Made by a program: the position numbers and the translations under genes. This document shows, one piece after another, positions 29,119 to 47,224 of a DNA stretch of 64,000 nt; position 1 is the first letter of the stretch, and each line of letters opens with the position of its first letter. The notes under the pieces were generated by a model. That model did no database searches and was not told the DNA's origin. It was given only the letters and a program-made list of their open reading frames with translations. The stretch comes from a virus, in IMG/VR virus record IMGVR_UViG_3300047409_000266, positions 1 to 64,000 of that record; one strand, 5' to 3'.

Positions 29119-29940
29119 ATGAAGAAGCTTCTAATGGGACTGGGAGCCTTGCTCATGTTGAGCATCGGCGCGCAGGCTGCTGATCTAGGCAGCAGGCAAC
29201 GTGGCGTTGAAGCTCCCATTGTAACGGCACAGCCGGTCGCATTCACCGGTGTCTACATCGGCGCCTTCTGGGGCTACGGAACATCAAACGACAACAGCGC
29301 GTTATCGCAATATCTGTGTCCGGACTGCAGTTCCGGAAAACTGGACTATCTGAACAAATACTACACTGGAAATCTCGGCACGCTTCATCGTGACGGAATG
29401 CTCGTCGGTGCTCAACTTGGCTATGATTGGGCCATGTCGGAGCGCTGGCGCCTTGGCGTCCTCATTGATGGTGCATGGTCAAACATCCAAGGCTCCGGTG
29501 GTTGGACTGGTGAAAATACCCAGCTAACATCGAAGCTCACTTGGCTAGCTAACTTCGATGCGAAGATCGGCTATCTCATTACATCAGGGGCGCAAATCTA
29601 TGCGCTCGGCGGAATGAGCGTCGGCCAAGTCAAGGATAGTATCAGCACCTTCGGTGGAATTAACAACTTGGGCGGCTGCGTTGGCGTGGTTTGCACCGAT
29701 CAAGCCAATCAAAGTGCATCCAGCACCAAGGTTGGTTGGAACCTCGGCGCCGGCTTTGAAGCCGCTCTCGATGCGCGTCGGGCATGGTCGGTGTTCATCG
29801 ACTATCGCCACACATGGCTGCCAGACAGTGGCATCAACTTCGCTGGATACATCTGCGACAATCCTGCTACGGCGGTGTTGAAGCAGAAGAATGAATTCGA
29901 CGTTGTGAGAGTCGGTCTTAATTTCCATCCGTACAACTAA
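29119..29940 (+). CDS. Omp25/RopB-family outer-membrane beta-barrel protein
   Basis: signal peptide AQAADL, FTGVYIG..WGYG, GAQLGYDW, GWNLGAGFE, VRVGLNF. Confidence 0.85.
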   Translation: MKKLLMGLGALLMLSIGAQAADLGSRQRGVEAPIVTAQPVAFTGVYIGAFWGYGTSNDNSALSQYLCPDCSSGKLDYLNKYYTGNLGTLHRDGMLVGAQLGYDWAMSERWRLGVLIDGAWSNIQGSGGWTGENTQLTSKLTWLANFDAKIGYLITSGAQIYALGGMSVGQVKDSISTFGGINNLGGCVGVVCTDQANQSASSTKVGWNLGAGFEAALDARRAWSVFIDYRHTWLPDSGINFAGYICDNPATAVLKQKNEFDVVRVGLNFHPYN

Positions 29941-30035
29941 TGGACGGGACCACGATCGCGATCATTCTTGTGGTCGCGTTTAGCCTTTGGTCAGCGTTCT
30001 TTGGTTGGCTGTTGGCTACTAAGATCGACGACTAA
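29940..30035 (+). CDS. 31-aa single-TM peptide
   Basis: MDGTTIAIILVVAFSLWSAFFGWLLATKIDD*, start overlaps previous stop. Confidence 0.4.
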   Translation: MDGTTIAIILVVAFSLWSAFFGWLLATKIDD

Positions 30036-30060
30036 TCGTAATCGTCGGAAGATATTGGGA

Positions 30061-30093
30061 GGAACCCTCGGCTTTGGCCGGGGGTTCTTTTTT
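30061..30093. terminator. terminator between convergent units
   Basis: GAACCCTCGGC..GCCGGGGGTTC followed by T6. Confidence 0.75.
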
Positions 30094-30099
30094 GTGGCC

Positions 30100-30288
30100 T
30101 TATTCCTCGTTGAGAATTTCACATAAAATGCGATACGCAGTTAGGTTGTCACTGTTATCCATTGCATTCACCGCAGCCAACATTGCCGCGCGCAGCCGAT
30201 CAATTTCCTTACTGCGCTCCATCGTCATTTCGAAGCCTACTTCGGCCATCACCTGATCTATGTTCACCTTATCGAGCGGGTCTGACAC
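30100..30288 (-). CDS. cassette ORF, hypothetical
   Basis: bounded by linker motifs. Confidence 0.6.
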   Translation of the reverse strand: MSDPLDKVNIDQVMAEVGFEMTMERSKEIDRLRAAMLAAVNAMDNSDNLTAYRILCEILNEE

Positions 30289-30297
30289 GATGGACCT

Positions 30298-30534
30298 TTA
30301 ACGCTTGTGTTCAGTTATCGTCGTTTTGCCGTATTGCGTGCTGGCAAGCCAATCTCTCCCGCACGACCCGCAAACATAGCTATGCGAGGTAATATTTGGG
30401 TCACCATTGTCCGTCCGGTTTCCCTTTTTGTCGTAAGTTGGCGTCCAGCCCATGCACGTTGAAGCGCCGCCGCGTGAGGAAATAGAGCAATCCTCGCGGG
30501 GGCAATCCTTCGTGATTTGCTGGATCGTGTTCAC
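30298..30534 (-). CDS. cassette ORF, Cys-rich zinc-ribbon-like
   Basis: CPREDC...CGSC; GTG start after linker. Confidence 0.6.
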   Translation of the reverse strand: MNTIQQITKDCPREDCSISSRGGASTCMGWTPTYDKKGNRTDNGDPNITSHSYVCGSCGRDWLASTQYGKTTITEHKR

Positions 30535-30541
30535 TTCGGGC

Positions 30542-30724
30542 CTATTCTTCTGTTTCAGATAGCGCGCGATCAATGGCTTCGCGGCTTATAGCTTTTAAAA
30601 GCGCCATGTTCACGACGCTCATCTTGGCAGCCATCCGTTTTGCAGCTTCATACGTTTTGTAGCGCCGATTAATTCTCTTACCTTCCGGCGTGTATCCTGA
30701 CAAATGGATTAGATCGTCAGACAT
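30542..30724 (-). CDS. cassette ORF, hypothetical
   Basis: bounded by linker motifs. Confidence 0.6.
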   Translation of the reverse strand: MSDDLIHLSGYTPEGKRINRRYKTYEAAKRMAAKMSVVNMALLKAISREAIDRALSETEE

Positions 30725-30732
30725 GCGGGCCT

Positions 30733-31050
30733 TTATCGTGGACTAGAGGTTGTACGATTTCTACCAGCCGCAAATGTCGCATCAATCACACATTTTGATT
30801 GAGCGCGGAATTTCATAAAGTGTGGCTCTCCGAGTGTGAATTTTTTGCGCAAATCTTTCCCATCGTGCAGATGTTCCAGTTCGTCGGGATCAAGGCCAGC
30901 CATCCGCGCTAAGGCTTTGGCACCAAAATCAACAAGGTAGTCATAGAAAGATTGCTCACAGCCCGCCACGGCGGCTTGCGAAGAACCTACGGCTAACGTG
31001 GACGGAGAGCGTAGACCGTCGAGGGTTCCTGCTGTGAGCTTCGGCATCAT
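30733..31050 (-). CDS. cassette ORF, hypothetical
   Basis: bounded by linker motifs. Confidence 0.55.
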   Translation of the reverse strand: MMPKLTAGTLDGLRSPSTLAVGSSQAAVAGCEQSFYDYLVDFGAKALARMAGLDPDELEHLHDGKDLRKKFTLGEPHFMKFRAQSKCVIDATFAAGRNRTTSSPR

Positions 31051-31062
31051 TGCAGCGGGCCT

Positions 31063-31263
31063 TTATCGTTTGCGTTTGCGAATGGGTTTTTCGGGTTCGA
31101 TTTGGTCGTGCCCGACAAGTGCATTCCAGACTTGTTCGATGACAGCATCGGCGTTGCCATTTTCAATATCCATTCCAATCTCACGCCGCAGCGCCGCCCG
31201 TGCTTTGGCTCGCAGCCTGTTGGGCATTTCGCTGTAGAACGGAAGTGCGCTTGTGCGTGGCAT
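31063..31263 (-). CDS. cassette ORF, hypothetical
   Basis: bounded by linker motifs. Confidence 0.6.
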   Translation of the reverse strand: MPRTSALPFYSEMPNRLRAKARAALRREIGMDIENGNADAVIEQVWNALVGHDQIEPEKPIRKRKR

Positions 31264-31274
31264 TCGGGCCTTTC

Positions 31275-31589
31275 TCAGTCTCGTTTGTTAACGTCCATTT
31301 CATTGATCGTAGCGTAGTCGGCCAAATGCCAATCCCAGCACTCAAGCGGCTCCATCAGATGCGCGTTTGCCGCAAGAAATCCAGACTCGTTGAACTTATA
31401 ATCTCCGGCTTGCTCTGGGTTTTTGCGCAGCCATTCCTCTCGCAACGCTTCACAGTCGATTTCGGCCAGCGCTCGAAACACGCCGCACACCGAGTAATCG
31501 CTGTAGCATCCTGTCGTCACGGTAAAGAGCGCGCCCTTTGGAATTGGCACCAGCTTCTTTTCGGACGCTAGATTTGCAATGTTCACCAC
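31275..31589 (-). CDS. cassette ORF, hypothetical
   Basis: bounded by linker motifs. Confidence 0.6.
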   Translation of the reverse strand: MVNIANLASEKKLVPIPKGALFTVTTGCYSDYSVCGVFRALAEIDCEALREEWLRKNPEQAGDYKFNESGFLAANAHLMEPLECWDWHLADYATINEMDVNKRD

Positions 31590-31599
31590 GGTTCGGGCC

Positions 31600-31779
31600 T
31601 TAATCCTGGTTGAGAGCTTGCTGAATTTCAGTCTGTGAATGTCCTGCGCTCATCATGGCTACTAGCGCCACGCTGCGCAGCCTGTCGATCTCGTCGGCCG
31701 CTTCCTCCAATAGTTCCCAAATGCCGTCATCGTTGGCCTTTCGTGCCTTAGCTTCGGTGCGCAGGAACGTGTGATCCAC
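31600..31779 (-). CDS. cassette ORF (59 aa) with LLEEAADEIDRLR motif
   Basis: hand-translated; bounded by linker motifs. Confidence 0.6.
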   Translation of the reverse strand: MDHTFLRTEAKARKANDDGIWELLEEAADEIDRLRSVALVAMMSAGHSQTEIQQALNQD

Positions 31780-31797
31780 GATCGGGCCTTTAACGGG

Positions 31798-31959
31798 CTA
31801 GGGTTCTGATTTGGGTTTTTCGGGTGGCTCTTTCTCAAGCCACTTGATGCCTTGTTGTAGCGATCCGATCTGCACCTGATTGGGATGGCGCTTCATAAGT
31901 TCCTGCAAAAAACCGGGTCCGGTTCGCTTGTCTTCTGGCCAGTCATCGGGGAATGACAT
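31798..31959 (-). CDS. cassette ORF, hypothetical
   Basis: MSFPDDWPED..., GAGGA RBS, overlaps the upstream ORF. Confidence 0.5.
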   Translation of the reverse strand: MSFPDDWPEDKRTGPGFLQELMKRHPNQVQIGSLQQGIKWLEKEPPEKPKSEP

Positions 31960-32170
31960 CTGTGGTTTCCTCAAAAATAATGGCAAAGTCTGTCACGTTT
32001 GGATTATGTGGGTTACCACGTGCTCTTGCTGCCGTATTGTGATGTTGAACAACATTCCTTACCGCTCGTCGCGCCATTCGTTCGCTATTTTCAAAACTAT
32101 GTTCGTGCCATTGTCCGTCTCTTTCAAGGCGCTCTACGAGAAAATGGCTAGTGGTTGTCCTTTTACTCAT
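31943..32170 (-). CDS. cassette ORF, hypothetical
   Basis: follows degenerate linker AAAAGCTCG. Confidence 0.55.
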   Translation of the reverse strand: MSKRTTTSHFLVERLERDGQWHEHSFENSERMARRAVRNVVQHHNTAARARGNPHNPNVTDFAIIFEETTDVIPR

Positions 32171-32178
32171 TCGAGCTT

Positions 32179-32379
32179 TTATTTCGTGTTTTCGAAGGCG
32201 CGATGCGCCATTTGTTCAATTGCACACAGCGAATTTCGCAGAGATAGTTCGATTGCATTACGTGATGTTAGGTCGTTCTCCAACTCACCAATTCTTGCAC
32301 ATAAGGCACGCAATAATGGGCGACCTACCGCCTTGGTATTAAGTAGCTTTTGCGCGGCAAAAAGTGGGTCGTTCTTCAC
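32179..32379 (-). CDS. cassette ORF, hypothetical
   Basis: bounded by linker motifs. Confidence 0.55.
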   Translation of the reverse strand: MKNDPLFAAQKLLNTKAVGRPLLRALCARIGELENDLTSRNAIELSLRNSLCAIEQMAHRAFENTK

Positions 32380-32390
32380 TACGGGCCTTT

Positions 32391-32696
32391 CTACTGCCTA
32401 CTCGTTTGCATGAATTTCTCAAGACGCTCACGCTTGCGGTCGCGCCCTTCACGTATGGCTGTGGCCTGCACAAGGTAGGCATCCTGCGTCATCGAAATGA
32501 CTTGAGATACGTCACCAATTTCTAGGCCGAGACAGTAGGTGTTCGACATACCATCGTTTGGCCGGTTCTCTTTTCCGAACCGGATCAGCTTGCTCGCTGC
32601 CTGGATAACCTCGGCGCATTCCTCCATCAGGATCACAAGCAATTCGCGCTCGTAGTCCGTGAGCGTCACACCGTTGGGCTGGTAGCGTTCAGACAT
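32391..32696 (-). CDS. MazG-like nucleotide pyrophosphohydrolase
   Basis: ILMEECAEVIQAASKLIRFG...LEIGDV (EExxE...ExxD). Confidence 0.75.
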   Translation of the reverse strand: MSERYQPNGVTLTDYERELLVILMEECAEVIQAASKLIRFGKENRPNDGMSNTYCLGLEIGDVSQVISMTQDAYLVQATAIREGRDRKRERLEKFMQTSRQ

Positions 32697-32705
32697 GCGG
32701 GCCTT

Positions 32706-32927
32706 TCAGGCAGCGTGGTCGAGTAGGATTTGCGTGGCCTTGTTCTCAGCGTCGGCGCGAGACATGACGCGCTGGCCACCATCGCGGCCTGGGTAGCCCC
32801 AGGTTACATAGAACTCGCCCTTGCGGCCGACCGGGTAGAAAGCCGCGTAGGCTTCACCAGCTACGGCACGCCACATTTTACGGCCTTTGGCGGTTCCATC
32901 CGGCATTACGACTTGCTGAAATTGCAT
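32706..32927 (-). CDS. first ORF of left array, hypothetical
   Basis: AAGGAG RBS, MQFQQVV... Confidence 0.6.
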   Translation of the reverse strand: MQFQQVVMPDGTAKGRKMWRAVAGEAYAAFYPVGRKGEFYVTWGYPGRDGGQRVMSRADAENKATQILLDHAA

Positions 32928-32976
32928 GGCGGTTCTCCTTTGGGCCTTTCGAATTAATCCCACCAGTTCAGGCGGG

Positions 32977-33038
32977 TTTGTTCCAACGACTATTGACATA
33001 CGCCTCGGGTGAGTTTATGTCAATGCCTGTGGAACAAA
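32977..33038. promoter_or_regulatory. symmetric bidirectional sigma70-type promoter within an inverted repeat
   Basis: TTGACA-17nt-TATGTC on both strands; TTTGTTCCA/TGGAACAAA outer arms. Confidence 0.75.
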
Positions 33039-33061
33039 TTATTTTGGCATAGGCGCTGGGA

Positions 33062-33673
33062 ATGATTCGAACTTACATAAACGCCGCTTGCGGGGTTCCA
33101 GCCGCAGAACAGACGGCAATATGCCAAGGTAAGGGCATGGATCGGAATGTTGTTTACACGGATAGTCGGACCAGTTTTCCCAAGGAACGGGCGGCGCTAA
33201 TTAGTTCGCTGCGGGTCAATGGGAAGGGCGACACAGTACTGGTGTCTGATTTGGAAGCGCTGGCAATCAATAAAAAGGACTTGCGCGCGATCAGGGCAGC
33301 CTTGAAGGCCAAGGGGGCGACAATCCTTGAGGGCCGGACAAAACGGCGCTCCACGAACGCCGAACAGCTTGCAGACATGATCCAGGACGCCTTGGATCGA
33401 TGGTCCCACAAGGGGCGACGATGGTCCAATGAGAAGGTACAGGCCGAGGATGCCAGCAAAGGCGGCAAAGCGTTGGCTGAGACCCGTGCCGGGCGGAAGG
33501 TGCCCGATCGCAGGGCGCTCCAAATCTGGCTGGATGGTCGGCTAACCGCTGATGAGGCCGTGGACCGCATCAACGGTATTCCAGGCTACGAACTGAACTG
33601 GACTCGATCGACGGCCTACCGCGATCTTGGCAGGCGCAAGCTTAAGACTGGCCCGATCTCGGGCAGAAAATAG
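33062..33673 (+). CDS. serine resolvase/invertase homologue lacking catalytic residues, C-terminal HTH
   Basis: YINAA in place of YARVS; VYTD; GDTVLVSDLEALA in place of GDxxxVxxLDRLGR; LKAKGA; WTRSTAYRDL. Confidence 0.7.
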   Translation: MIRTYINAACGVPAAEQTAICQGKGMDRNVVYTDSRTSFPKERAALISSLRVNGKGDTVLVSDLEALAINKKDLRAIRAALKAKGATILEGRTKRRSTNAEQLADMIQDALDRWSHKGRRWSNEKVQAEDASKGGKALAETRAGRKVPDRRALQIWLDGRLTADEAVDRINGIPGYELNWTRSTAYRDLGRRKLKTGPISGRK

Positions 33674-33683
33674 GAGCCGAGCC

Positions 33684-33851
33684 GTGGGTTACGAACACCG
33701 CGAAGATTCACAGCAAATGGATTTCCGCAATGATCCAAAATCATGCGGGCATTGTTGGCGGTGCGGTGAGTTTCGTAGTTTGCGCTGTATCGAGCAGCAT
33801 GGGTGGCTATGCCGTCCTTGTATAAAAATTGACGAAGCCGAAAGCCGATAG
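33684..33851 (+). CDS. cassette ORF, Cys-rich
   Basis: CGHCWRC...CRPC; GTG after linker. Confidence 0.55.
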   Translation: MGYEHREDSQQMDFRNDPKSCGHCWRCGEFRSLRCIEQHGWLCRPCIKIDEAESR

Positions 33852-33861
33852 GGGCCGTTCT

Positions 33862-34104
33862 GTGAATGCCAAAACACCTTCATGCGTCATTGCAGATTGG
33901 CTCGCGCTCACCCGCGCCGGTCAGTGGACCCCAATGGAGGCTGCGCGGGAGGTCGTCGGTAGGTTGAAGTTAGAGGGCTACGCTATCGTTCCGAAGGAGC
34001 CGACCGAAGAAATGATTGACGCTGGCGAAATGGCCGTTGCTGACAATATCATCGAAGACACAGCACTCGAAACATATCGTGCAATGATCGGCACGATTAA
34101 ATAA
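33862..34104 (+). CDS. cassette ORF with VPKEPTEEM motif
   Basis: motif common in small phage proteins; bounded by linkers. Confidence 0.6.
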   Translation: MNAKTPSCVIADWLALTRAGQWTPMEAAREVVGRLKLEGYAIVPKEPTEEMIDAGEMAVADNIIEDTALETYRAMIGTIK

Positions 34105-34116
34105 AAGGAGCCGCGC

Positions 34117-34421
34117 ATGACTGACACGACCTGCCTAGATGAAATCATGCGCGTCTGGGATGACCTCATGGATTTGATTTTACCGTGCCGATGGAAACGA
34201 TTAGGAAATGGAAGAAGGCCGTGGCAGTAGAGCGTCTATTTGACTTGATGAATTTAATCTCTTGGGCCGAAGCTGAACTAGCGCGGGTAAAGAATCGAAC
34301 GCCGCTAAGGAACGCTGACGTGAACCGTGAACCAAAGAGTTGGTATTGCGATCAGTGCCACGTCGAAGTTTACGAACGGCGCTGTCCTCACTGTGGGAAG
34401 CTGGAAAAAGACAAGTCCTAG
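34117..34421 (+). pseudogene. cassette apparently frameshifted near 34175
   Basis: ATG 34117 frame stops early; a second frame (34185-34421) runs to the next linker with CDQC...CPHC. Confidence 0.4.
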
Positions 34422-34435
34422 AAAGGAGTCGACCC

Positions 34436-34519
34436 GTGATTGAGTTGACTCTTGTTCTCATCGCGCTGGCGCTCACAGTCTATTGCGGCTGGCATAAAAT
34501 GTTCGGGATGTGGAAGTAA
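34436..34519 (+). CDS. 27-aa TM micro-peptide
   Basis: VIELTLVLIALALTVYCGWHKMFGMWK*. Confidence 0.45.
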   Translation: MIELTLVLIALALTVYCGWHKMFGMWK

Positions 34520-34565
34520 GAGGACTCACTATGCCAAAATCGAAATGTTGTGAAGAAGCCGAGCG

Positions 34566-34670
34566 ATGAATTTTACGGGTTGGATACCGCCGGAGTTTTA
34601 CGTGATCGTCAGTCTCGCGGTATTGGTGCTGTTCTTCGGTGGCTATTTCGTTTGGTCTATAGTCCATTAA
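34566..34670 (+). CDS. 34-aa TM micro-peptide
   Basis: MNFTGWIPPEFYVIVSLAVLVLFFGGYFVWSIVH*. Confidence 0.5.
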   Translation: MNFTGWIPPEFYVIVSLAVLVLFFGGYFVWSIVH

Positions 34671-34682
34671 AGGAGCCGAGTC

Positions 34683-34823
34683 ATGATCAAATATGAAAAT
34701 CAGTACGGCGCGGAAATGGCATGGGCTAATTTTCACAAGCTGGTGTTTTACGGCACGGCTCGCTGGCCGTCTTACTGCTACTGGATTGTCCCCGGCACGA
34801 TCACTGATTTAGAACGAATGTGA
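34683..34823 (+). CDS. 46-aa cassette ORF
   Basis: exactly fills the interval between two linkers. Confidence 0.5.
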   Translation: MIKYENQYGAEMAWANFHKLVFYGTARWPSYCYWIVPGTITDLERM

Positions 34824-34835
34824 AGGGAGCCCGTG

Positions 34836-34988
34836 ATGGAGAAGGACATGCTGGAATTTTTGACGATCCAGGCCATCATGAATAATTACCGATGGACAAC
34901 TGCTCCTGAACGACAGGATAAGTTGGAACAGCGCGGGCTTCAGTTAGCTGAACTGCTCGCGCTCAGCATCGCCAACCGTGGCAGATAA
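34836..34988 (+). CDS. 50-aa cassette ORF
   Basis: exactly fills the interval between two linkers. Confidence 0.5.
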   Translation: MEKDMLEFLTIQAIMNNYRWTTAPERQDKLEQRGLQLAELLALSIANRGR

Positions 34989-35000
34989 AGGAGGCTTGGC

Positions 35001-35342
35001 GTGAGAATGTTCACGATCATGGTCGCGACGTATCGCATGGACAATGAGATTGTGGACGCGCGTACATTTGGCACGCCATATCTATGCGTCTGTATGCCGT
35101 GGGACATGATCGCATCACACGAAAGACAGGCGCACAAAAATCATAGTCAGACACTTGAGAGGCTTAATGAGCGCGGCGGACTTTCCGCGTGTGAGGCGCT
35201 GGCGGTTCTTGAGGATCGCGAATATCGGCGGATGCCGAAGGGTGCAGCCAACCACGAACTGTGTCGCAAGATTGCCGATTGGATAGACGAACAATGCGTT
35301 CCTGATCCTGCGAACGCTAATTCATCTCAGGCCCTTGCCTGA
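35001..35342 (+). CDS. cassette ORF, conserved-looking phage protein
   Basis: PWDMIASHERQAHKNHSQTLERLNERGGLSACEA. Confidence 0.65.
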   Translation: MRMFTIMVATYRMDNEIVDARTFGTPYLCVCMPWDMIASHERQAHKNHSQTLERLNERGGLSACEALAVLEDREYRRMPKGAANHELCRKIADWIDEQCVPDPANANSSQALA

Positions 35343-35355
35343 CGAAAGGAGCCCG

Positions 35356-35493
35356 ATGCGCAAAAAGCCGAAAACAAAGAAGCGGCGAAAGGAAAAGCGA
35401 TTGACCTGCTTTTGTACCGCCATCTGTTTTGGAAATGCAAAGCGCGGGCAAATCTGCAAGATGTATGATCCTAGAATTAAGTTGAACCATTAA
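35356..35493 (+). CDS. 45-aa basic Cys-containing ORF
   Basis: bounded by linkers. Confidence 0.45.
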   Translation: MRKKPKTKKRRKEKRLTCFCTAICFGNAKRGQICKMYDPRIKLNH

Positions 35494-35507
35494 AGGAGCG
35501 AGTTTGT

Positions 35508-35619
35508 GGCGGGGTAGTTCAAGTCTCTATAAGAACGGCTCATGCAACGACAAGGTAGCTAGCATACTACGTCGCCAAGATGAGCAGATCGCGGGTATGG
35601 AATCCCGCACCCGCAGCCA
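35508..35619 (+). ncRNA. tRNA-like RNA with extended anticodon arm and 3' CCA
   Basis: acceptor GGCGGGG/ACCCGCA-G-CCA, D stem GTTC/GAAC, GCTCA/TGAGC stem, variable AGATC, T stem GCGGG/CCCGC. Confidence 0.65.
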
Positions 35620-35637
35620 AATGAAAGGAGCCGCGTT

Positions 35638-35832
35638 GTGACCATCAGATGCGCCGACTGCGGCAAGTTCATTCCGACAACTCAGCTTGTGGACGACAGC
35701 GCGCGTTTCTTTTATCAACCCGATAGTGAATACGGCCATGAGATTTCGGAATGGACCTGTGCCGGTTGTGTTCAAAAAGAAAAACGACAGGCAGAAACCG
35801 AAGAACGTAAGCATCAGAATGAATTAGGATAG
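35638..35832 (+). CDS. cassette ORF, zinc-finger-like
   Basis: CADCGKF...CAGC. Confidence 0.6.
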   Translation: MTIRCADCGKFIPTTQLVDDSARFFYQPDSEYGHEISEWTCAGCVQKEKRQAETEERKHQNELG

Positions 35833-35881
35833 GAGGCCAAAATGTTTGGTGACGGTGGAACAGAATTCTGAAAGGGACGCT

Positions 35882-36067
35882 GTGACCGAGATTGAACGCT
35901 TGCGCCGCGCCCTGCAAAAGATTGCAGACTTGCCGGTGGAGAAATTTCCGGGGGCTAAGTTCGATCCGAACTTGCGCGCCAGACGTATTGCTATTGCAGC
36001 GCTAGGTGGCGACCCGGAAAGTGCAGACCATGAGAAGTTTTATTTGGTAAAAGGGACGCCATCATGA
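35882..36067 (+). CDS. cassette ORF
   Basis: EIERLRRALQKIA...IAIAAL motif. Confidence 0.55.
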   Translation: MTEIERLRRALQKIADLPVEKFPGAKFDPNLRARRIAIAALGGDPESADHEKFYLVKGTPS

Positions 36068-36156
36068 ACTTGATTAAGCCCGAAGTCTGGTCGCGATGTG
36101 ACGCTCAGTGTTATGGGCTATCGCGGCTTACTGGCTGGCGAGCCATTCAGAATTAA
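36064..36156 (+). CDS. 30-aa micro-ORF
   Basis: MNLIKPEVWS...RAIQN*, bounded by linkers. Confidence 0.4.
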   Translation: MNLIKPEVWSRCDAQCYGLSRLTGWRAIQN

Positions 36157-36165
36157 AGGGACGCT

Positions 36166-36246
36166 GTGACGCCATTTGAGGCAACTTTTGTTATGGTGGT
36201 GGGAACAGTTATTTTTCTCATCATTCTACACACAGGCAGAAGGTAG
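36166..36246 (+). CDS. 26-aa TM micro-peptide
   Basis: VTPFEATFVMVVGTVIFLIILHTGRR*. Confidence 0.45.
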   Translation: MTPFEATFVMVVGTVIFLIILHTGRR

Positions 36247-36255
36247 GAGCGAAAA

Positions 36256-36471
36256 ATGTATGACCTCTTAATGAGCAATGGAATCATGTTTGGTTTTGGC
36301 GGCATCGTGGGCTTTCTGATTGGTCAGAAAGTTACGAAGTGGCCAAGCGAGCAAGCAATGATGGACCGGTTAGTCATTGAAGCTACGCAACGCAGAATGC
36401 TCGGCGTCACTCAAAAAGACATTGAGCATAATATCGAAACCCGCGTTGAGGCTAATCTGAACAAAATCTGA
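36256..36471 (+). CDS. cassette ORF, N-terminal TM
   Basis: AGGAG RBS; ends in linker. Confidence 0.55.
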   Translation: MYDLLMSNGIMFGFGGIVGFLIGQKVTKWPSEQAMMDRLVIEATQRRMLGVTQKDIEHNIETRVEANLNKI

Positions 36472-36482
36472 AAGGGACGCAA

Positions 36483-36653
36483 ATGGCTGCCGCCGTAGCA
36501 ATCAGGCATATTGCGCAAGGTATCTGCCGAGTAGTTAGCAGAGGTTGCGTCATGGACGAAAAGCCGAAGCGTCCTGTATGCACGGCGAAGAATTGTCGAA
36601 TGGTTCGGATCGCGCACATGGCCGTTAAATCGGCGCTGGAACAGACCAAGTAA
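36483..36653 (+). CDS. 56-aa cassette ORF
   Basis: hand-translated; bounded by linkers. Confidence 0.5.
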   Translation: MAAAVAIRHIAQGICRVVSRGCVMDEKPKRPVCTAKNCRMVRIAHMAVKSALEQTK

Positions 36654-36666
36654 GGGACCGCGATCC

Positions 36667-36798
36667 GTGAAGCAATTCGGAATATCAGGCGAATGTTTAG
36701 ACCATGTCGCTGAAATGCGAGAGCGAGAGAGAGACAAATATCTCCGGTCGTACTCAACTTGGTTTCGGAGACTTTTGCACTGGCTAGGATTGGAGTGA
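36667..36798 (+). CDS. 43-aa cassette ORF
   Basis: hand-translated; bounded by linkers. Confidence 0.5.
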   Translation: MKQFGISGECLDHVAEMRERERDKYLRSYSTWFRRLLHWLGLE

Positions 36799-36808
36799 AA
36801 GGGACGCC

Positions 36809-37042
36809 ATGACGCGCACAGAGGCAGAAGCCGAAATGGTTCAGGGGTTCATGGACGGCTATGACGTGGATTGTCCGGTGCCAAGTCTCAATCGCAGCTA
36901 TAGTTATCGGCACGGGTTTTTGAACGGTCGCGATGACAAAGTTCTCAAGCGTCCGCGAGACACCGCAGAGCGATTACGCGAGATAGCCGAGGACTGTATC
37001 GCACTCGATTGCGGTGAAGTCGTTTTGGCGCAGATGGCATAG
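36809..37042 (+). CDS. cassette ORF
   Basis: EMVQGFMDG...NRSYSYRHGFLNGRDD. Confidence 0.6.
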   Translation: MTRTEAEAEMVQGFMDGYDVDCPVPSLNRSYSYRHGFLNGRDDKVLKRPRDTAERLREIAEDCIALDCGEVVLAQMA

Positions 37043-37058
37043 AGCCGAAAGGGACGCC

Positions 37059-37376
37059 GTGCTGATCCCCTGTGATATGGGCTCCGAATGTTACTGGCCA
37101 GCGTGCAATCTAGATTGCCGTGGGCGGATCATGGAGGCCAAAACGCTTAGCGTGGCTGTGCCAATTGCCGATAAGGTAAACCGCTGCGAAACCTGTGGCG
37201 TCGATACCGACTTTATTCACGACCACAAGTCGGACAACTCCGGTTTAGATGACGGCCCTTACTTACCTGGGTGTAGGCCACGGAAGCGGCCAGTTCGCAG
37301 GGACGATCTTGGCGAGGTGCGCAAGCGGGCGTGGCAAACGCGGCGCACTAAATACGGCAGCAGGGGGCACAGATAG
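37059..37376 (+). CDS. cassette ORF, Cys-rich
   Basis: GTG after linker. Confidence 0.5.
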   Translation: MLIPCDMGSECYWPACNLDCRGRIMEAKTLSVAVPIADKVNRCETCGVDTDFIHDHKSDNSGLDDGPYLPGCRPRKRPVRRDDLGEVRKRAWQTRRTKYGSRGHR

Positions 37377-37378
37377 CA

Positions 37379-37549
37379 ATGAAAACACTTGGCCAGCTTT
37401 CCTATGAACGCGATCTTGAGTTGCGCCCGCTCTATCACGATGGCGAGCGACGTAAGCCATGGGAGAAACTTAGCGAGATTTGCAGGTGGAGTTGGAATCG
37501 ACCGATACCTATTCCAGCGCGGGAGGACGGCGATGGCGCGCGGGTTTGA
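37379..37549 (+). CDS. 56-aa ORF
   Basis: MKTLGQLSYERDL...YHDG..RKPWEKL. Confidence 0.5.
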   Translation: MKTLGQLSYERDLELRPLYHDGERRKPWEKLSEICRWSWNRPIPIPAREDGDGARV

Positions 37550-37694
37550 TCGTTTTGAGGAAGGCGAGCGACTGATCAATATGCTGCTCAAATCTAGCGA
37601 ATGTGGCGGCATGGGAATGAACGAGACGCCATGTGAATATTTGCGGCGACTACTCGATGTACTTAAAAACGCAACAATCATGCTTGAGGAATGA
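37533..37694 (+). CDS. 53-aa ORF
   Basis: GGAGG RBS, MARGFDRF... Confidence 0.45.
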   Translation: MARGFDRFEEGERLINMLLKSSECGGMGMNETPCEYLRRLLDVLKNATIMLEE

Positions 37695-37697
37695 GCC

Positions 37698-37892
37698 ATG
37701 ACTATGAAGGTTGAATGTTATTTCTGCGGCGACGATTGCTCAACCGCACACGCGACCTGGCATGGCTACCCGTGTCACATCATGTGCATTCCAGCAAAGC
37801 CAAAGAAAACCGTGAGTGAAGTTGCTACACCGCAACCAATGCGGACTGGCGGCGTGCCAGTCTTTGCCCGTGTCAATGGCACAGAAATATAA
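37698..37892 (+). CDS. Cys-rich ORF
   Basis: CYFCGDDC...CHIMC; ends in linker. Confidence 0.55.
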   Translation: MTMKVECYFCGDDCSTAHATWHGYPCHIMCIPAKPKKTVSEVATPQPMRTGGVPVFARVNGTEI

Positions 37893-37902
37893 AGGGACCG
37901 CG

Positions 37903-38094
37903 ATGGCACGCAAAAAGAAGAAAGACGGCAAGCACATTTGCAAATGCGAATGTGGCGGCGAGGTTCGCGGCGTTGAAAGCCTGGGGCGCATGTTTACATG
38001 GTGCGAGAAATGCACGCCCATCACTAAGATCGCGCCCGATGCAATTGCGTCATGGTATCACGGCGACATCGACGGTGATGGATCGCTGGCATAG
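37903..38094 (+). CDS. cassette ORF, zinc-ribbon-like
   Basis: CKCECGG...CEKC. Confidence 0.55.
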   Translation: MARKKKKDGKHICKCECGGEVRGVESLGRMFTWCEKCTPITKIAPDAIASWYHGDIDGDGSLA

Positions 38095-38113
38095 AGCCGA
38101 AAGGGACCGCGAC

Positions 38114-38674
38114 GTGTGGCCTACGGAATATCGATTGATTAAAACTCTGCGAGAGCGCGCAGACTTAAAGCAACGCAACGTCTGCTATTGGTGTGCCATG
38201 CCAATGTTGAATGATGTGACGGCTGAACATTTGATCCCTCGACACGCGGGCGGCAAAACTGTTGCGGGAAACATCGTGGCGGCACATCGCAAATGCAATA
38301 GCGGACGGCAACACCAAGACCCATTAAGACGACAAGAACAGTTGCAAAATGCGTTGCGAAATTCTTTGCAACGAACGTGCATGGAGGTCGTGGTGCCAGT
38401 CAACAAATTTTATAATGATAATTTTACGGCGGCAGAGTTGGCCGACGCGATTGAACTCGGTTCTGCAATTTCTATACGGCGAGATCAGAAGTGGGTAACG
38501 TATCGAATGCGCCCGCTGTTCTCAAAGATGGTGGCTAGAGCAATTCGACTTGGTTGTCCTAGCGAATGCTGGCACGCGAAGATAGATGACGGGGCGATGT
38601 TAAAATGTAGCTTGAAGGGTGGCCATGGCGGTCAACATAAAATGGCTGTCATTGCTACGCAGGACGAATTTTGA
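38114..38674 (+). CDS. HNH endonuclease fused in frame to an unrelated C-terminal segment
   Basis: CYWC...TAEHLIPRHAGG...NIVAAHRKCN. Confidence 0.7.
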   Translation: MWPTEYRLIKTLRERADLKQRNVCYWCAMPMLNDVTAEHLIPRHAGGKTVAGNIVAAHRKCNSGRQHQDPLRRQEQLQNALRNSLQRTCMEVVVPVNKFYNDNFTAAELADAIELGSAISIRRDQKWVTYRMRPLFSKMVARAIRLGCPSECWHAKIDDGAMLKCSLKGGHGGQHKMAVIATQDEF

Positions 38675-38686
38675 AAGGGACGCAGC

Positions 38687-38866
38687 GTGTGGGGCGAAGT
38701 ATACTCGACTGGATGGGGAATGCCGCTCATGTTTTGCCGGGTTTGCGGTGGGCGCGTAGGTGACGGCGCGTGCCCGCGTCACCCGCAAGCGCCAGAAGGA
38801 ATGCAAATGCTGATCGACAAATATCTTGGCTTGCTAGTTGGCAGGCACGTAGAACAGACAACTTAA
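38687..38866 (+). CDS. 59-aa cassette ORF
   Basis: CRVC...CPRH; bounded by linkers. Confidence 0.5.
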   Translation: MWGEVYSTGWGMPLMFCRVCGGRVGDGACPRHPQAPEGMQMLIDKYLGLLVGRHVEQTT

Positions 38867-38877
38867 AGGCACGAGCC

Positions 38878-39054
38878 ATGAGCATTCGGATTGCTGGAAG
38901 CATGACGAGGCTAGCGGAGCGCAATGCGTTCGAGCGAGTTGCGCGTTGGCATTCTCGAATGTCTAAGCTGGCCAAAAACAGTGAAGAAAAATATTGGCAC
39001 TTGAACGCAGCCAAGGTGTTCCGATCATGGAAGCGCCGTGGGATTCAAACTTAG
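38878..39054 (+). CDS. cassette ORF
   Basis: ATG after TAAAGGCACG. Confidence 0.5.
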   Translation: MSIRIAGSMTRLAERNAFERVARWHSRMSKLAKNSEEKYWHLNAAKVFRSWKRRGIQT

Positions 39055-39064
39055 AGGACCACGC

Positions 39065-39220
39065 TTGGCCTTAGAGCTAAAATATAGTCCGCGCTTTATA
39101 AACCGCCTGCAACGATTGGCGCGCGGCGCGACTTATCCGATTTGGTCAATGACAAGTTTCAAGGCTTCAGTAAGTAAACCGAAGCCGATACGGCAAGACA
39201 AACTGAAACGCAGGAAATAG
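39065..39220 (+). CDS. basic cassette ORF
   Basis: TTG after TAGAGGACCACGC. Confidence 0.4.
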   Translation: MALELKYSPRFINRLQRLARGATYPIWSMTSFKASVSKPKPIRQDKLKRRK

Positions 39221-39230
39221 GGACCGCGCA

Positions 39231-39353
39231 GTGAACTTGATTGATGTTCTACGAGAAGGCGGCGAACCTGCAATGCAGATGATTAGTGGATTTATTTTTA
39301 TTTTCGGACTGCTCATTGAGTTGATTTGGATTGCTGACGAGATTCAAAAATAG
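39231..39353 (+). CDS. 40-aa TM peptide, last unit of right array
   Basis: GTG after TAGGGACCGC. Confidence 0.45.
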   Translation: MNLIDVLREGGEPAMQMISGFIFIFGLLIELIWIADEIQK

Positions 39354-39360
39354 GGGAGAT

Positions 39361-39834
39361 TTATCGCCGCTGTGCCTTCATCCGCCTAAAACTTTCTGGC
39401 TGGTCCCAAAGTCCTTGCCAAATACCGCGCAGATTCTCACGCGCCTCCGCCTCCGCAGCGGCATAAACTCCCTTGGAATATCTGGCGTAATCTATCGCCA
39501 TTCCAGCGCGGACCATTTGCTCACCCAGGTCTTTGCCATCGACTGAACACGTCGCAATGATTCGATTATAAATATCGATGGTGCCTGTCAAACATTCAAC
39601 GCGCTTGTTCAGGATCAAACTCAGAAGATACGTCCTGGCGGCCACGCCGCAGCGGTATGGCGTATGATTGGCATCAAGGCATGTCTGATCGAGCTCTGGC
39701 GCGTCCACGCCATAGAGCCGGACGCGCTTACCACCAACAATCAAAGAATCGCCATCCGTGACCTTCACATCGTTGTCGACCAGCGTGAAAGCTGCGACCA
39801 GGATGCCAATGGCAAGTGCTGCAATGCGAATCAT
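39361..39834 (-). CDS. thermonuclease (SNase) family protein, exported or membrane-anchored
   Basis: VTDGDSL...VRLYGVDAPE...DIYNRIIA...AE.EAR...RGIW. Confidence 0.9.
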   Translation of the reverse strand: MIRIAALAIGILVAAFTLVDNDVKVTDGDSLIVGGKRVRLYGVDAPELDQTCLDANHTPYRCGVAARTYLLSLILNKRVECLTGTIDIYNRIIATCSVDGKDLGEQMVRAGMAIDYARYSKGVYAAAEAEARENLRGIWQGLWDQPESFRRMKAQRR

Positions 39835-40067
39835 TTTAACCTCTTAAAGCCAAGATGCTCGGCAAGAGACCTTGAGATCTCGCACTGTGGCATTGGGATA
39901 AAATCGACGTTGTCGTTGTTCTTCAAAGCGGTGCGCATATTTATGATGATATCACGCTGCGCATCAAGGTATCCGCACGAATATGCCAGACTTGCGCGAT
40001 TTGCCAAAAACACGATAGCCACGAACGCAACAGCCAAAGTGCAACTTCCAATAATTCTCCAGATCAT
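39831..40067 (-). CDS. membrane-anchored hypothetical protein
   Basis: overlapping start/stop within operon. Confidence 0.55.
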   Translation of the reverse strand: MIWRIIGSCTLAVAFVAIVFLANRASLAYSCGYLDAQRDIIINMRTALKNNDNVDFIPMPQCEISRSLAEHLGFKRLK

Positions 40068-40285
40068 TTCCAGCCTCCCTTAAGAATACGGTCGGCACGT
40101 CGCAGATTGCCGATGTTGAATTTTGCTCTGAACATCACTCTACGTTGTCGCGGTGCGGTAAGTCCTGGATGAAACCGTGGAGGTGCGGCATCCCATTCGC
40201 CGGCTTCGAGTGCGAACGGTTCAAGTGCTCGCTTGAGCGCTCTGATGCGGCGGCGCAGGCGGCCGTATTTGGTTGGCTTCCTCAC
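40064..40285 (-). CDS. hypothetical protein
   Basis: overlapping start/stop within operon. Confidence 0.55.
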   Translation of the reverse strand: MRKPTKYGRLRRRIRALKRALEPFALEAGEWDAAPPRFHPGLTAPRQRRVMFRAKFNIGNLRRADRILKGGWK

Positions 40286-40707
40286 CGGCTGAACCCCCGT
40301 GATTGCAGTTTCCGGCCGCTGTTCCAGGGGTGTTTCCTCCCTGGGATCGATCCTGTGCGTTTTCGAGGCTTCCCAGGTTGTCGGGTAGCGACCGTCTGCC
40401 GAGACGCAACCAGTGCCTTCGCCAAGCGGTCGGCCTTGCGCATTTCGGGAATGTCCTTTTTGGCGGTCTTATCTTTGTGGGCTTTCCGGAATCGCCACGT
40501 CACGTTCCACGGCTGGTGAGGGTTGACGCCTTGCTTGATCGCGTCGTCGTACCGGATCGGGTAATGGTCTCGAGCGAACAAAGAAATCACCATATCTGCG
40601 GTCATCTGCTTCGCATGCTCATACGGAATCGCAGGTTTGCCGTCTGGACCAGGGATCTGCAATAGCGCGGCGGCAAGCTGCACCTTCATTGGGATATGTC
40701 TACTCAT
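40282..40707 (-). CDS. HNH-like nuclease
   Basis: RDHYP...PWN...AHKDKT..D....KADRL. Confidence 0.5.
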   Translation of the reverse strand: MSRHIPMKVQLAAALLQIPGPDGKPAIPYEHAKQMTADMVISLFARDHYPIRYDDAIKQGVNPHQPWNVTWRFRKAHKDKTAKKDIPEMRKADRLAKALVASRQTVATRQPGKPRKRTGSIPGRKHPWNSGRKLQSRGFSR

Positions 40708-41123
40708 GGCAGTAGATCGCCTATAGCTCGTTCGGCGCGGCGCCGAGCCTTGAGGTTTTTTGCTTTCTCCTTCGCGTCGTAGCGCAGATGGCACATTTGA
40801 CAGAGCACGCGAAGATTTGAAATTTTATTATCTTCTGGCTTATGATTGAGGTGTGCTGTGGTGAGAACGATCCTGATAATCTTGAGTTTGAGATCGCCAG
40901 CACACCATGCGTGTTCGCCAGGGCGCGGCCAAGTAAGGCGCATGCCATTGGTTCCGGTTGGATGTGCATCATGCCACTTGCCTACCTTGTCACGGCCACC
41001 GAGAGCACCGTTTGGCAACCCGCATTCCTGACAGCGGTTGCCAGCGCGAAAGCGGCGAAGCGCCGAGATCGAGTCCCAGTCTTTCGCGTATCTTGACCGT
41101 TCTGATTCTCTGATTGGCATCAC
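40704..41123 (-). CDS. HNH endonuclease-like protein
   Basis: RAGNRCQECG...VLTTAHLNH.PEDN...NLRVLCQMCHLRYD. Confidence 0.75.
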   Translation of the reverse strand: MMPIRESERSRYAKDWDSISALRRFRAGNRCQECGLPNGALGGRDKVGKWHDAHPTGTNGMRLTWPRPGEHAWCAGDLKLKIIRIVLTTAHLNHKPEDNKISNLRVLCQMCHLRYDAKEKAKNLKARRRAERAIGDLLP

Positions 41124-41449
41124 ACAACCTCCTTCTCTACGGCCTCGGTACCGATCTCGCGTACGGATGGCCCGACGTCTTTCAGTGATCGATCGATATC
41201 GGCCAGGACGAAGTCGCGCGGTTCGCTGGGCGGGAAACCATCGATGAGTATTCTCAGGCGCGTTAGCATTTCTCTCATGCGCTCGATCTTCTCGCCAGCG
41301 TTCGACGGATTGAGCCTGTCTTTTATGCGGTAGACGTGGAATTGCTTTCCTGGGTGTTCTGCTCGGAGTCGATCGCGCTCGCTGAGAGCGCCAGATATGT
41401 TTTTGTGCTGCATGAATTTGTAGCCCGAGACAATGAATCGGTCAGACAT
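41120..41449 (-). CDS. hypothetical protein
   Basis: operon continuity. Confidence 0.55.
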   Translation of the reverse strand: MSDRFIVSGYKFMQHKNISGALSERDRLRAEHPGKQFHVYRIKDRLNPSNAGEKIERMREMLTRLRILIDGFPPSEPRDFVLADIDRSLKDVGPSVREIGTEAVEKEVV

Positions 41450-41990
41450 GACTCCCTCTCTCGTTTGGCTTGGTTGATTCAGTTGCTTCTTTCTTGAGCG
41501 CGGCGACGTCGATGCCGGTTAGGATCGAGCATAGTTCGAGCACGTCGGCCTTGGATTTTTCGAAAGCCTGCTTGCCCATTGCTTTCGTTGACTGCGATTT
41601 TGGCTCACGCCGCACGATCGTATCGTCGTTGACGAAAAATCGGCAGTAGATGTTTTGCGGATCGCGCATCAAACGAGATACCCACCGCATGGCCTCGTCT
41701 TTCGTCGCACATTTGATTGGGTGATCGGTGTAGTTTCCAGTCTCAATGAGCGCATAGTGCCGCAGATCCTCGGGGTCGGTGAACAGATGGCTGATGGTTT
41801 CCGGCAGGTTGTCGAAGGCATTTTTGAGGCATGCAAAATAGAACCGATGAGAAGCCTGCGACCGCGGTTCATCCACGATCATCGTGTGGTATTCACCTAC
41901 GCAAAACTGCGAATTGCAGAGGTCTCGATGCCGAGGATGGGGAACCATGTGCTCCCCATCCCACATCATGTTCACCGGCCTCTGGCGCAC
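41442..41990 (-). CDS. NinB/DUF1367-like recombination accessory protein
   Basis: RSQASHRFYFA...LRHYALIETG...KSQS...M....FEKSK; downstream of Bet. Confidence 0.55.
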   Translation of the reverse strand: MRQRPVNMMWDGEHMVPHPRHRDLCNSQFCVGEYHTMIVDEPRSQASHRFYFACLKNAFDNLPETISHLFTDPEDLRHYALIETGNYTDHPIKCATKDEAMRWVSRLMRDPQNIYCRFFVNDDTIVRREPKSQSTKAMGKQAFEKSKADVLELCSILTGIDVAALKKEATESTKPNERGSHV

Positions 41991-41993
41991 GGG

Positions 41994-43253: not shown

Positions 43254-43264
43254 TGGTGTGCTCC

Positions 43265-43909
43265 TTAGATAAATCTGATGGCGACAGAAAAACTCCCGTT
43301 GCCGAGCTCGGCACCTGGGATCGGCGGGTTTGCCGCGACGATGGCCTGCAACGCCGCGGAGTACGCTGGCGTGCCTTCCTCAAGCTCGCCCTTCTTAACG
43401 CGCGATTCGAGGTCATCGATCGCCTTAGAGCGCGCTCTCAATGCGGTGGTGAGATCGGCGCGACTAAGTGCTGGCTCTGGCACCTTGAAGAAGCTTGCCG
43501 GCACCATCGCCTCATCGGTAACGACAAGCTTGGGCTGGACAAAGCGCCTGCTGATTGTTGCGATGTCTAGTTCAAACTTATCCTGGCCGAGAACTTCAAG
43601 TGCGCTGACCAGCATGGTTCGCATGAAATCAATGCGGTTCTCCAGCCTGCTCTTGCGGGCCTGCTTGCGTTCGATCGACTTCTTGATGCCAAGCACGCGC
43701 GTATCGTCATCATCGATTTGGATAACGATCCGCTTCATCAATTCCAGAAGGTTGGTCTCGCCCTCGATGGTGTCCTGTAGGGTCTGCTCGTCCAGTTCCT
43801 GATCTTCTTCGGCCAGGATGGTTTTCAGTTGCTCCTTGAGCGCCGCGGCTGCGGCCGTCTCCTTGGCCAAGTCGCGCCGTGCGTCGGTGTTCTGTTTGGT
43901 ACGTGCCAT
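43265..43909 (-). CDS. siphovirus Gp157-family protein
   Basis: DTIEGET...coiled coil...VVTDEAMVPASFFK...IPGAEL. Confidence 0.8.
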   Translation of the reverse strand: MARTKQNTDARRDLAKETAAAAALKEQLKTILAEEDQELDEQTLQDTIEGETNLLELMKRIVIQIDDDDTRVLGIKKSIERKQARKSRLENRIDFMRTMLVSALEVLGQDKFELDIATISRRFVQPKLVVTDEAMVPASFFKVPEPALSRADLTTALRARSKAIDDLESRVKKGELEEGTPAYSAALQAIVAANPPIPGAELGNGSFSVAIRFI

Positions 43910-43942
43910 TGTCGTTGCTCCTGTTATCGTGTTGACGTCAGA

Positions 43943-47215: not shown

Positions 47216-47224
47216 CTGATCCTC

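Follow-up and report, generated by a model that had tools for sequence, protein, structure and literature searches.

Three block-specific flavours of a start-associated linker in a divergent island of small phage genes

The IMG/VR virus record IMGVR_UViG_3300047409_000266 is a 96,528-bp sequence of an uncultured tailed phage, and its first 64 kb (positions 1 to 64,000) form the window analysed here. Structural genes occupy the plus strand up to position 30,035. They are followed by an island of 42 small open reading frames (ORFs) of 26-203 amino acids (aa), located between 30100 and 39353, 12 of them on the minus strand (30100-32927) and 30 on the plus strand (33062-39353). The two arms diverge from a nested palindrome at 32948-33071. 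To the right of the island, an operon on the minus strand (39,361-47,545) contains nuclease-, RecT- and Gam-like genes, and plus-strand replication and head genes come next. This report concerns the junctions between the island ORFs, where short conserved linkers are found a few nucleotides (nt) ahead of most start codons. The main features of the locus are as follows.

30058-30093, plus strand: intrinsic terminator (fold -26.7 kcal/mol, z -4.35, followed by UUUUUU)
30100-32927, minus strand: left arm, ORFs L12 to L1, 12 ORFs of 53-105 aa, 10 starts with the linker (T)AAAGGCCCG placed 1-5 nt before ATG or GTG
31798-32170, minus strand: overlapping ORFs L4 and L5 with ATG starts, a linker-free insert in the left arm
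32948-33071, both strands: nested palindrome, TTCGAATTAATCCCA/TGGGAATGATTCGAA, TTTGTTCCA/TGGAACAAA and ATTGACATA/TATGTCAAT
33062-33673, plus strand: ORF R1, 203 aa, weakly similar to the catalytic domain of serine resolvases and with a helical region at its C-terminus, no linker
33671-35641, plus strand: R1-flavour block, ORFs R2 to R13 (12), 11 preceded by (T)AAAGGAGCCG-type linkers
35833-35881, plus strand: boundary between the R1 and R2 flavours, where an ordinary TAGGAGG site is followed by a mini-ORF of 9 codons (35843-35872) and the first R2-flavour linker
35869-39353, plus strand: R2-flavour block, ORFs R14 to R30 (17), 13 preceded by (TG)AAAGGGACGC or AAAGGGACCGCG, linkers reaching to 39,240
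39361-39834, minus strand: nuclease-like first gene of the convergent operon, bounding the island on the right

The ORF map was made by hand and by script with guidance from the linkers, as the automatic gene caller misplaced several of the tiny ORFs. The annotated frame has the best codon log-odds in 40 of the 42 island ORFs. Their codon score is 0.07 (0.16 for other small genes), and their GC content at third codon positions is 0.55 (0.61 for other genes). An all-against-all blastp comparison of the 42 ORFs revealed no paralogy, the top pair being L12/L6 with E=1e-3. The original prediction, made from the sequence alone, of about forty tiny unrelated ORFs in two diverging arms is thereby confirmed, and paralogy was ruled out as the origin of the repeated junctions. 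When all 42 ORFs were compared with Pfam and PHROG, family matches comprised an HNH endonuclease, a MazG-like fragment, a zinc ribbon and three ORFs matching PHROGs of unknown function only. The majority are ORFans, as in the early or hyperplastic regions of phages.

Both ends proposed for the island are real. The terminator ends the plus-strand structural operon and marks the left end; read on the minus strand, it is a hairpin devoid of a U-run. On the right, the convergent gene begins after a gap of 7 nt (39353-39361), and no terminator or hairpin was found between it and the last island stop. At this end, transcription from both sides should collide or read antisense.

A linker precedes 34 of the 42 island starts, in agreement with the original prediction that nearly every junction carries one. 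It consists of the upstream stop codon fused to AAAGG and a fixed tail, the stop lying either within the linker or directly before its A-rich beginning. Linkers are 9-12 nt long and their tails end 1-7 nt before the next start (5 and 13 nt at two degenerate copies). There are three tails, each confined to its own block: CCCG in the left arm, AGCCG at 33.67-35.64 kb, and GACGC or GACCGCG at 35.87-39.24 kb, where the two sub-variants are interspersed along the block. The eight starts devoid of a linker (L4, L5, R1, R5, R17 and R22-R24) fall into three clusters, and all are ATG except the uncertain R5.

Linker motif counts were checked against shuffle controls. The left-arm core AAGGCCCG occurs nine times in the 96.5-kb genome, seven of these copies being at 30.7-32.7 kb on the minus strand. 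Ten of the 11 genome copies of AAGGGAC are on the plus strand at 35.87-38.68 kb, and six of the ten plus-strand copies of AGGAGCC are at 33.67-35.63 kb. The motifs are nearly absent from the remaining 87 kb, where ribosome sites have variable tails. In every block, each of the four positions following the AGG anchor carries 0.6-1.1 bit of information; the corresponding value is about zero in 57 anchored genes outside the island. Conservation drops sharply at the motif edge in most junctions. The motifs are thus not equally common before core genes, and the claim that they occupy the ribosome-site position and are specific to the island stands.

The junctions are uniform in other respects as well. 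Stop-to-start gaps measure 7-14 nt at 29 of 40 island junctions and 7-19 nt at nearly all, and island coding sequences hardly ever overlap. In the rest of the genome, neighbouring genes either overlap by 1, 4 or 8 nt or are separated by long gaps. Start codons other than ATG are used by 20 of the 42 island ORFs (48%) versus 9 of 85 genes outside (11%; Fisher 8e-6). Within the island they are found at 19 of the 34 linkers versus one of the eight starts without a linker (p=0.047).

At a few junctions, sequence identity does not end with the motif. The island contains 34 exact direct repeats of at least 11 nt, whereas Markov controls gave 11.7 +/- 3.8 and other genome segments have 18-25. Those of greatest length in the island are all located at junctions and reach past the motif into flanking codons. 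These repeats, together with a short ORF at one of the junctions, are listed here.

37035-37055 and 38087-38107, plus strand: exact 21-nt repeat TGGCATAGAGCCGAAAGGGAC, the second copy ahead of the HNH gene
30717 and 32689: exact 18-nt repeat, linker plus ATGTCTGA
35871 and 36155: exact 16-nt repeat
30725 and 31055: exact 15-nt repeat
34532-34567, plus strand: mini-ORF of 11 codons and a stop, ending in ATGA on the R7 start inside a degenerate linker (TGAAGAAGCCGAGCGATGA)

The first copy of the 21-nt repeat is made up of the final codons of R20, the R20 stop, AGCCG resembling the R1-flavour tail, and an R2-flavour linker. The joint contained in it, TAG-AGCCG-AAAGGGAC at 37040-37058, looks like an R1-type remnant followed by an R2-flavour linker. 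A second composite linker, AAAGGCCC plus AAAGGAG, lies before L1 at 32929-32950. The mini-ORF at 34532-34567 may be read as a remnant or a leader. The one at the flavour boundary ends with GAATTCTGAAAGGGACGC, a copy of the end of the HNH gene at 38666, and both mini-ORFs look like remnants of breaks inside genes.

Two further repeats were observed. Within R3, a linker-like AAGGAGCCG (33994-34014, plus strand) is followed by an in-frame ATG at 34012 and may represent an internal start or a fossil left by two fused units. On the minus strand, an exact 14-nt repeat ACCCGAAAAACCCA (31083-31096 and 31812-31825) encodes PEKP near the C-termini of L8 and L5, which are otherwise unrelated.

Next, we consider relatives of the island and of its genes. 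Neither megablast nor blastn matched the island to any of 50,697 phage records. The R1 protein, used alone and as an alignment, found no relatives in IMG/VR, Joint Genome Institute metagenomes and GTDB genomes, and neither did the flanking RecT-like and 412-aa proteins in IMG/VR. Homologues of R1 (P0002-P0004) with 60-63% identity are present on Logan contigs, P0002 (60%) on one of 25,313 bp, P0003 on one of 3,915 bp and P0004 on one of 1,963 bp. For the conserved 412-aa protein, the nearest GenBank phages are YuA-like, at 40% aa identity, too distant for comparison of the island; a virion protein has matches of at most 35% aa identity, in phages of Caulobacter, Pelagibacter, Roseobacter and others.

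Single island genes do have relatives. An in-frame read-through of four ORFs (R7-R10) was searched against 1.84 billion representatives. R10 (35001-35342, plus strand) belongs to a small phage protein family of unknown function in which over 2000 representatives reach E<1e-3 and 246 reach E<1e-10, with the invariant core PW.M...H..QA..NH.QTL..L..RGGL; it has no Pfam or PHROG match, and its GTG start at 35001 is backed by the homologues. R8 found two relatives at 68-73%, and R9, situated between them, matched only itself. Homologues of R10 (about 50% aa identity) occur at 18 IMG/VR loci. In two unrelated metagenome contigs (L138:2840-2953 and L139:2631-2747), R8 (46 aa) is 82% identical over its last 38 residues (AWANFHK.VFYGTARWPSY.YWIVPGTIT), with completely different N-termini; R8 is a conserved mini-domain with a swappable head. 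On its 3' side, DNA homology of R8 stops exactly at the stop codon.

No other gene of this phage lies near the homologues at these 18 loci and two contigs, and the junctions at all 20 are ordinary, different and free of linkers. This indicates that the linker is not carried with the genes and is imposed on them in the present phage. Single genes do move between unrelated phages, but not together with the linker.

The linkers are reminiscent of the start-associated sequences (SAS) of Cluster K mycobacteriophages, which consist of a Shine-Dalgarno (SD) core with conserved non-pairing flanks and an internal stop codon and precede non-structural genes in one orientation (PMC3203893). Cluster K sites lie 3-8 nt before starts, number 11-19 copies per genome and favour ATG (PMC3203893; survey of 188 genomes, PMC12699233). 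The island linkers share most of these traits. They, too, are asymmetric repeats with an SD core and conserved non-pairing bases, placed a few nucleotides before the starts of unrelated non-structural genes, rare elsewhere, uniformly oriented and often including the upstream stop. The R1 flavour even has AGGAGCC in common with the SAS consensus GGGATAGGAGCCC.

In other respects the two differ. The island consensuses AAAGGCCCG, AAAGGAGCCG and AAAGGGACGC do not match GGGATAGGAGCCC within two mismatches, and the phage is another one, as is probably the group of its host. Instead of a single flavour there are three, each specific to a block, and their density (34 of 42 starts within 9.3 kb) far exceeds 11-19 copies per genome. 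GTG and TTG starts are enriched where SAS favour ATG, and the gaps are uniform at 7-14 nt. About half of SAS sites are extended by paired 17-bp inverted repeats upstream, whereas a repeat search of 29900-39500 detected no recurring inverted-repeat family next to linkers or at junctions. SAS have been known since 2011, but to our knowledge no study has identified their reader or the reason for the conservation of their non-pairing bases.

We consider it rather probable that the island linkers are SAS-type translational-coupling adaptors in an early accessory region and that recombination between junctions accounts for their sameness. The region would be of the 'host-takeover' type, expressed early as two divergent polycistronic operons. 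AAAGG is complementary to CCUUU at the 3' end of bacterial 16S rRNA, and translational coupling or re-initiation classically relies on such an SD core at the upstream stop, here 5-11 nt from the next start. The linker would accordingly join the upstream stop to the SD core AAAGG and provide a spacer of 5-11 nt, so that a ribosome finishing one small gene is handed to the next and about 40 peptides could be made from two promoters. The excess of GTG and TTG starts at linkers fits this arrangement, because initiation would depend on the hand-over of the ribosome.

The tails cannot pair with rRNA; another cause is therefore needed for their conservation, either a specific reader or copying. Copying is favoured because the flavours are local, exact repeats are in excess, identities extend past the motif and some joints are composite. 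We suppose that the tails are mainly a product of short-patch recombination or gene conversion between neighbouring junctions, which probably keeps the linkers alike and would amount to concerted evolution within each block. The same exchanges could allow loss, duplication or replacement of entire genes with no damage to their neighbours, since island coding sequences hardly ever overlap. The original prediction had the linkers acting as micro-homology junctions as well as ribosome sites. The 21-, 18-, 16- and 15-nt identities reaching past the motif agree with that part, but breaks are found inside genes too.

Several observations weigh against this interpretation. The 16S 3' end assumed for the host is that of bacteria in general. 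GC-rich fixed spacers are unlike the outcome expected of selection for efficient initiation alone, and a sequence-specific reader would explain the tails equally well. Linkers of 9-12 nt are short for recombination of the RecT/Red type, and identity past the motif is seen at only four or five junction pairs. Both mini-ORF remnants (34532 and 35843) show breaks away from linkers, and the 5' homology break of R8 falls inside the ORF (at about codon 8). Predicted unpaired probabilities of SD and start regions show no clear difference from those of other genes and provide no structural basis for coupling; RNA structure was rejected as such a basis.

A related proposal takes T4-type phages as its model. 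Their hyperplastic regions contain promoter-early stem-loop (PeSL) cassettes, each composed of a sigma-70-like promoter and a stem-loop terminator, whose shuffling and mini-circles have been shown by comparison and experiment (PMC2839356, PMC4122927). In both cases repeated regulatory elements stand between small ORFan early genes, and recombination is proposed to bring about gain, loss and replacement of genes. It is possible, if hardly likely, that the linkers are a ribosome-site-sized counterpart of PeSLs, serving as translation joints and at the same time as preferred crossover points of the RecT/Gam type, where mini-genes may be excised, duplicated or swapped between co-infecting relatives; the flavours would then isolate three sub-arrays or mark three translational regulons. 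PeSLs are, however, long enough for homologous recombination, while the island repeat is a 9-12 nt ribosome site within one transcript, and its shuffling is inferred. The island contains six promoter-like sites (8.1 +/- 2.9 expected) and ten terminator-like sites (10.9 +/- 3.7 expected), none of either kind at linkers.

Alternatively, the tails could be mRNA sites for sequence-specific readers, such as RNA-binding proteins, an endoribonuclease like T4 RegB or RegA, or a small RNA, and the three blocks would be three translational regulons. We think this unlikely. As in SAS, for which a reader encoded by host or phage has been proposed (PMC3203893), the tails are conserved where rRNA pairing gives no explanation. 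The flavours form contiguous blocks that could be temporal classes, conservation mostly ends sharply at the motif edge, and several very basic zinc-ribbon peptides are encoded in the island. On the other hand, no RNA-binding or RNase family was recognized among the 41 small ORFs, and local copying is a simpler explanation than three readers of different specificity. A reader also fits poorly with the interspersed R2 sub-variants, and identity patches into neighbouring codons would not be expected from it alone.

The centre of the island bears on the remaining explanations. The nested inverted repeats are real, and TTGACA-17 nt-TATGTC can be read on both strands of the palindrome. The palindrome would thus probably represent overlapping divergent promoters or an operator. 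The promoter function assigned to it by the original prediction is inferred from this pattern, as a promoter consensus scan did not flag the site. The half-sites do not resemble the linkers.

The adjacent ORF R1 had been described as a protein of resolvase fold, and only weak sequence likeness is left of this claim. Against Pfam PF00239 (Resolvase) it scores 19.3 bits (E=1.3e-3), under the cut-off of 23.3. A profile of three family members aligns residues 13-88 with residues 15-90 of the gamma-delta and Tn3 resolvases (1ght/1gdt) in consistent register, with E=0.03-0.16. The catalytic Ser10 (Y-x-R-x-S) is missing in all three members, which have YINAACG, YRCPIPG and YRNPIYG, and so are Arg68 and Arg71 of DRLGR, which aligns with EALAI/AVLA. 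The AlphaFold2 model of R1 (predicted local distance difference test score 47, predicted template modelling score 0.29) is too poor for a fold search. R1 is probably a DNA-binding regulator, and a dead resolvase-like regulator is plausible.

The original prediction had presented the island as a dedicated gene-capture and shuffling platform comparable to integrons. The linkers would then be recombination sites at which a resident enzyme inserts, excises and reorders cassettes; R1, the HNH endonuclease R26 and the neighbouring RecT/Gam pair may be considered for this role. Several features lend it some appeal: the modular non-overlapping format, the identity patches at junctions, the single genes common to unrelated phages, the RecT-like and Gam-like genes 2.6-4.5 kb to the right (in support of the original prediction where it invokes the phage Bet/RecT), and the HNH gene directly behind one copy of the 21-nt repeat. 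PeSL repeats of T4-type phages do shuffle ORFans and make mini-circles (PMC2839356). As in integrons, many unrelated small genes would be promoterless and stacked behind a common promoter, here presumably the single central palindromic TTGACA-17-TATGTC pair; internal promoter-like sites are not in excess.

This explanation is nevertheless highly improbable. As the original prediction itself noted, there are no attC hairpins and no IntI; Pfam and PHROG scans and the repeat search of the island detected none. The island thus has no tyrosine integrase, and the resolvase likeness is sub-threshold, with catalytic Ser and Arg missing in all three family members, leaving no active recombinase. Sites of attC type measure about 57-141 bp, for which junctions of 7-19 nt are too short, and the island genes run in two diverging directions. 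The junction motif does not travel with the genes, as the different junctions of R8 and R10 homologues show, and breaks inside genes include the 5' break of R8. Searches of IMG/VR for TGAAAGGGACGC-N1-5-TG and AAAGGGACGC-N160-190-AAAGGGAC returned single chance matches or coding repeats only, and no arrays.

Stoperators of Cluster A mycobacteriophages are asymmetric sites that occupy very short gaps between genes and all point the same way with respect to transcription. Least probable of all is that the linkers act on DNA in this way, as oriented repressor operators silencing both arms and perhaps bound by the resolvase-like helix-turn-helix protein, or as phage promoters giving short-leader mRNAs: the linkers share the asymmetry, single orientation and short gaps of stoperators and the right arm begins with the gene for a DNA-binding-type protein, but an SD core always 5-11 nt from the start at varying distance is more in keeping with a ribosome site, the model calls for three specificities, the half-sites of the central palindrome are unlike the linkers, and sigma-70-like sites are not in excess (6 found, 8.1 expected). 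SAS have been contrasted with stoperators (PMC3203893).

Other phages have comparable gene arrangements. The host-takeover module of SPO1 consists of small early genes of unknown function. Citrobacter phage Mordin reportedly has a 26-bp SAS-like repeat. Both resemble the island in having small early genes in arrays, with translation-start regions of unusual uniformity; they differ in sequence and length, and neither block-specific flavours nor fusion to stop codons are known to have been described for them.

Two of the island ORFs have recognizable enzyme relatives.

38114-38674, plus strand: R26, 186 aa, HNH endonuclease and one of the units of the R2-flavour block (PF01844 at 25.5 bits, cut-off 21.4; PF14279; 12 HNH PHROGs)
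32391-32696, minus strand: L2, 101 aa, resembling the C-terminal half of MazG-type nucleoside triphosphate pyrophosphohydrolases

L2 matches only positions 82-168 of a MazG-type PHROG of 195 positions and is therefore a half-size version of this enzyme family. R3 matches the C-terminal third only of PHROG 5913. The R1-flavour block contains zinc-ribbon peptides and two membrane-type peptides of 27-34 aa, besides R8 (34683-34823) and R10. Very basic zinc-ribbon peptides are encoded, for example, at 35356-35493, at 37903-38094 and by the C-terminus of 37059-37376.

Gene structure is doubtful at two places. R4 (34117-34230) shares 46 nt with R5 (34185-34421), the two frames being one apart, and R5 has no ribosome site; a -1 frameshift, gene decay or an error in sequencing could be responsible. 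R22 and R23, in a linker-free stretch (37379-37694), overlap by 17 nt, and a 101-codon ORF with a TTG start (37389-37694) spans both.

The unit at 35504-35641, predicted to be non-coding, is filled by a 45-codon TTG-started ORF, and that prediction is not confirmed. ARAGORN and Rfam gave no match to it and its fold is no better than that of shuffled sequences (z-score -0.32). A poor cloverleaf appears only with ARAGORN introns allowed and the threshold lowered, and the tRNA-like candidate was rejected as unsupported.

Outside the island, the virion module includes a single ORF of 4,831 aa (9968-24463, plus strand), unusually large for a 96.5-kb phage. In the replication region beyond the window, ARAGORN with introns allowed reports a putative tRNA-Arg(acg)-like gene with an intron at 74463-74558.

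Taken together, the island is best read as a striking three-flavour example of SAS-like elements and not as an integron-like gene-capture machine. The label of a candidate new system is too strong, since SAS (Cluster K) and PeSLs (T4-type) already cover both ideas behind it. With 34 junctions in 9.3 kb, three adjacent flavours and a bias to weak starts, in a phage unrelated to mycobacteriophages, the island is an unusually clean natural test set. Reporters can reveal if translation is affected by the tail and if coupling is its only mode of action. The island ORFs are candidate host-takeover or anti-defence genes; they include the zinc ribbons, the membrane peptides and a member of the widespread R10 family. 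If breakpoints of relatives fall within linkers, the PeSL idea of regulatory repeats driving ORFan turnover would extend to repeats of the size of a ribosome site.

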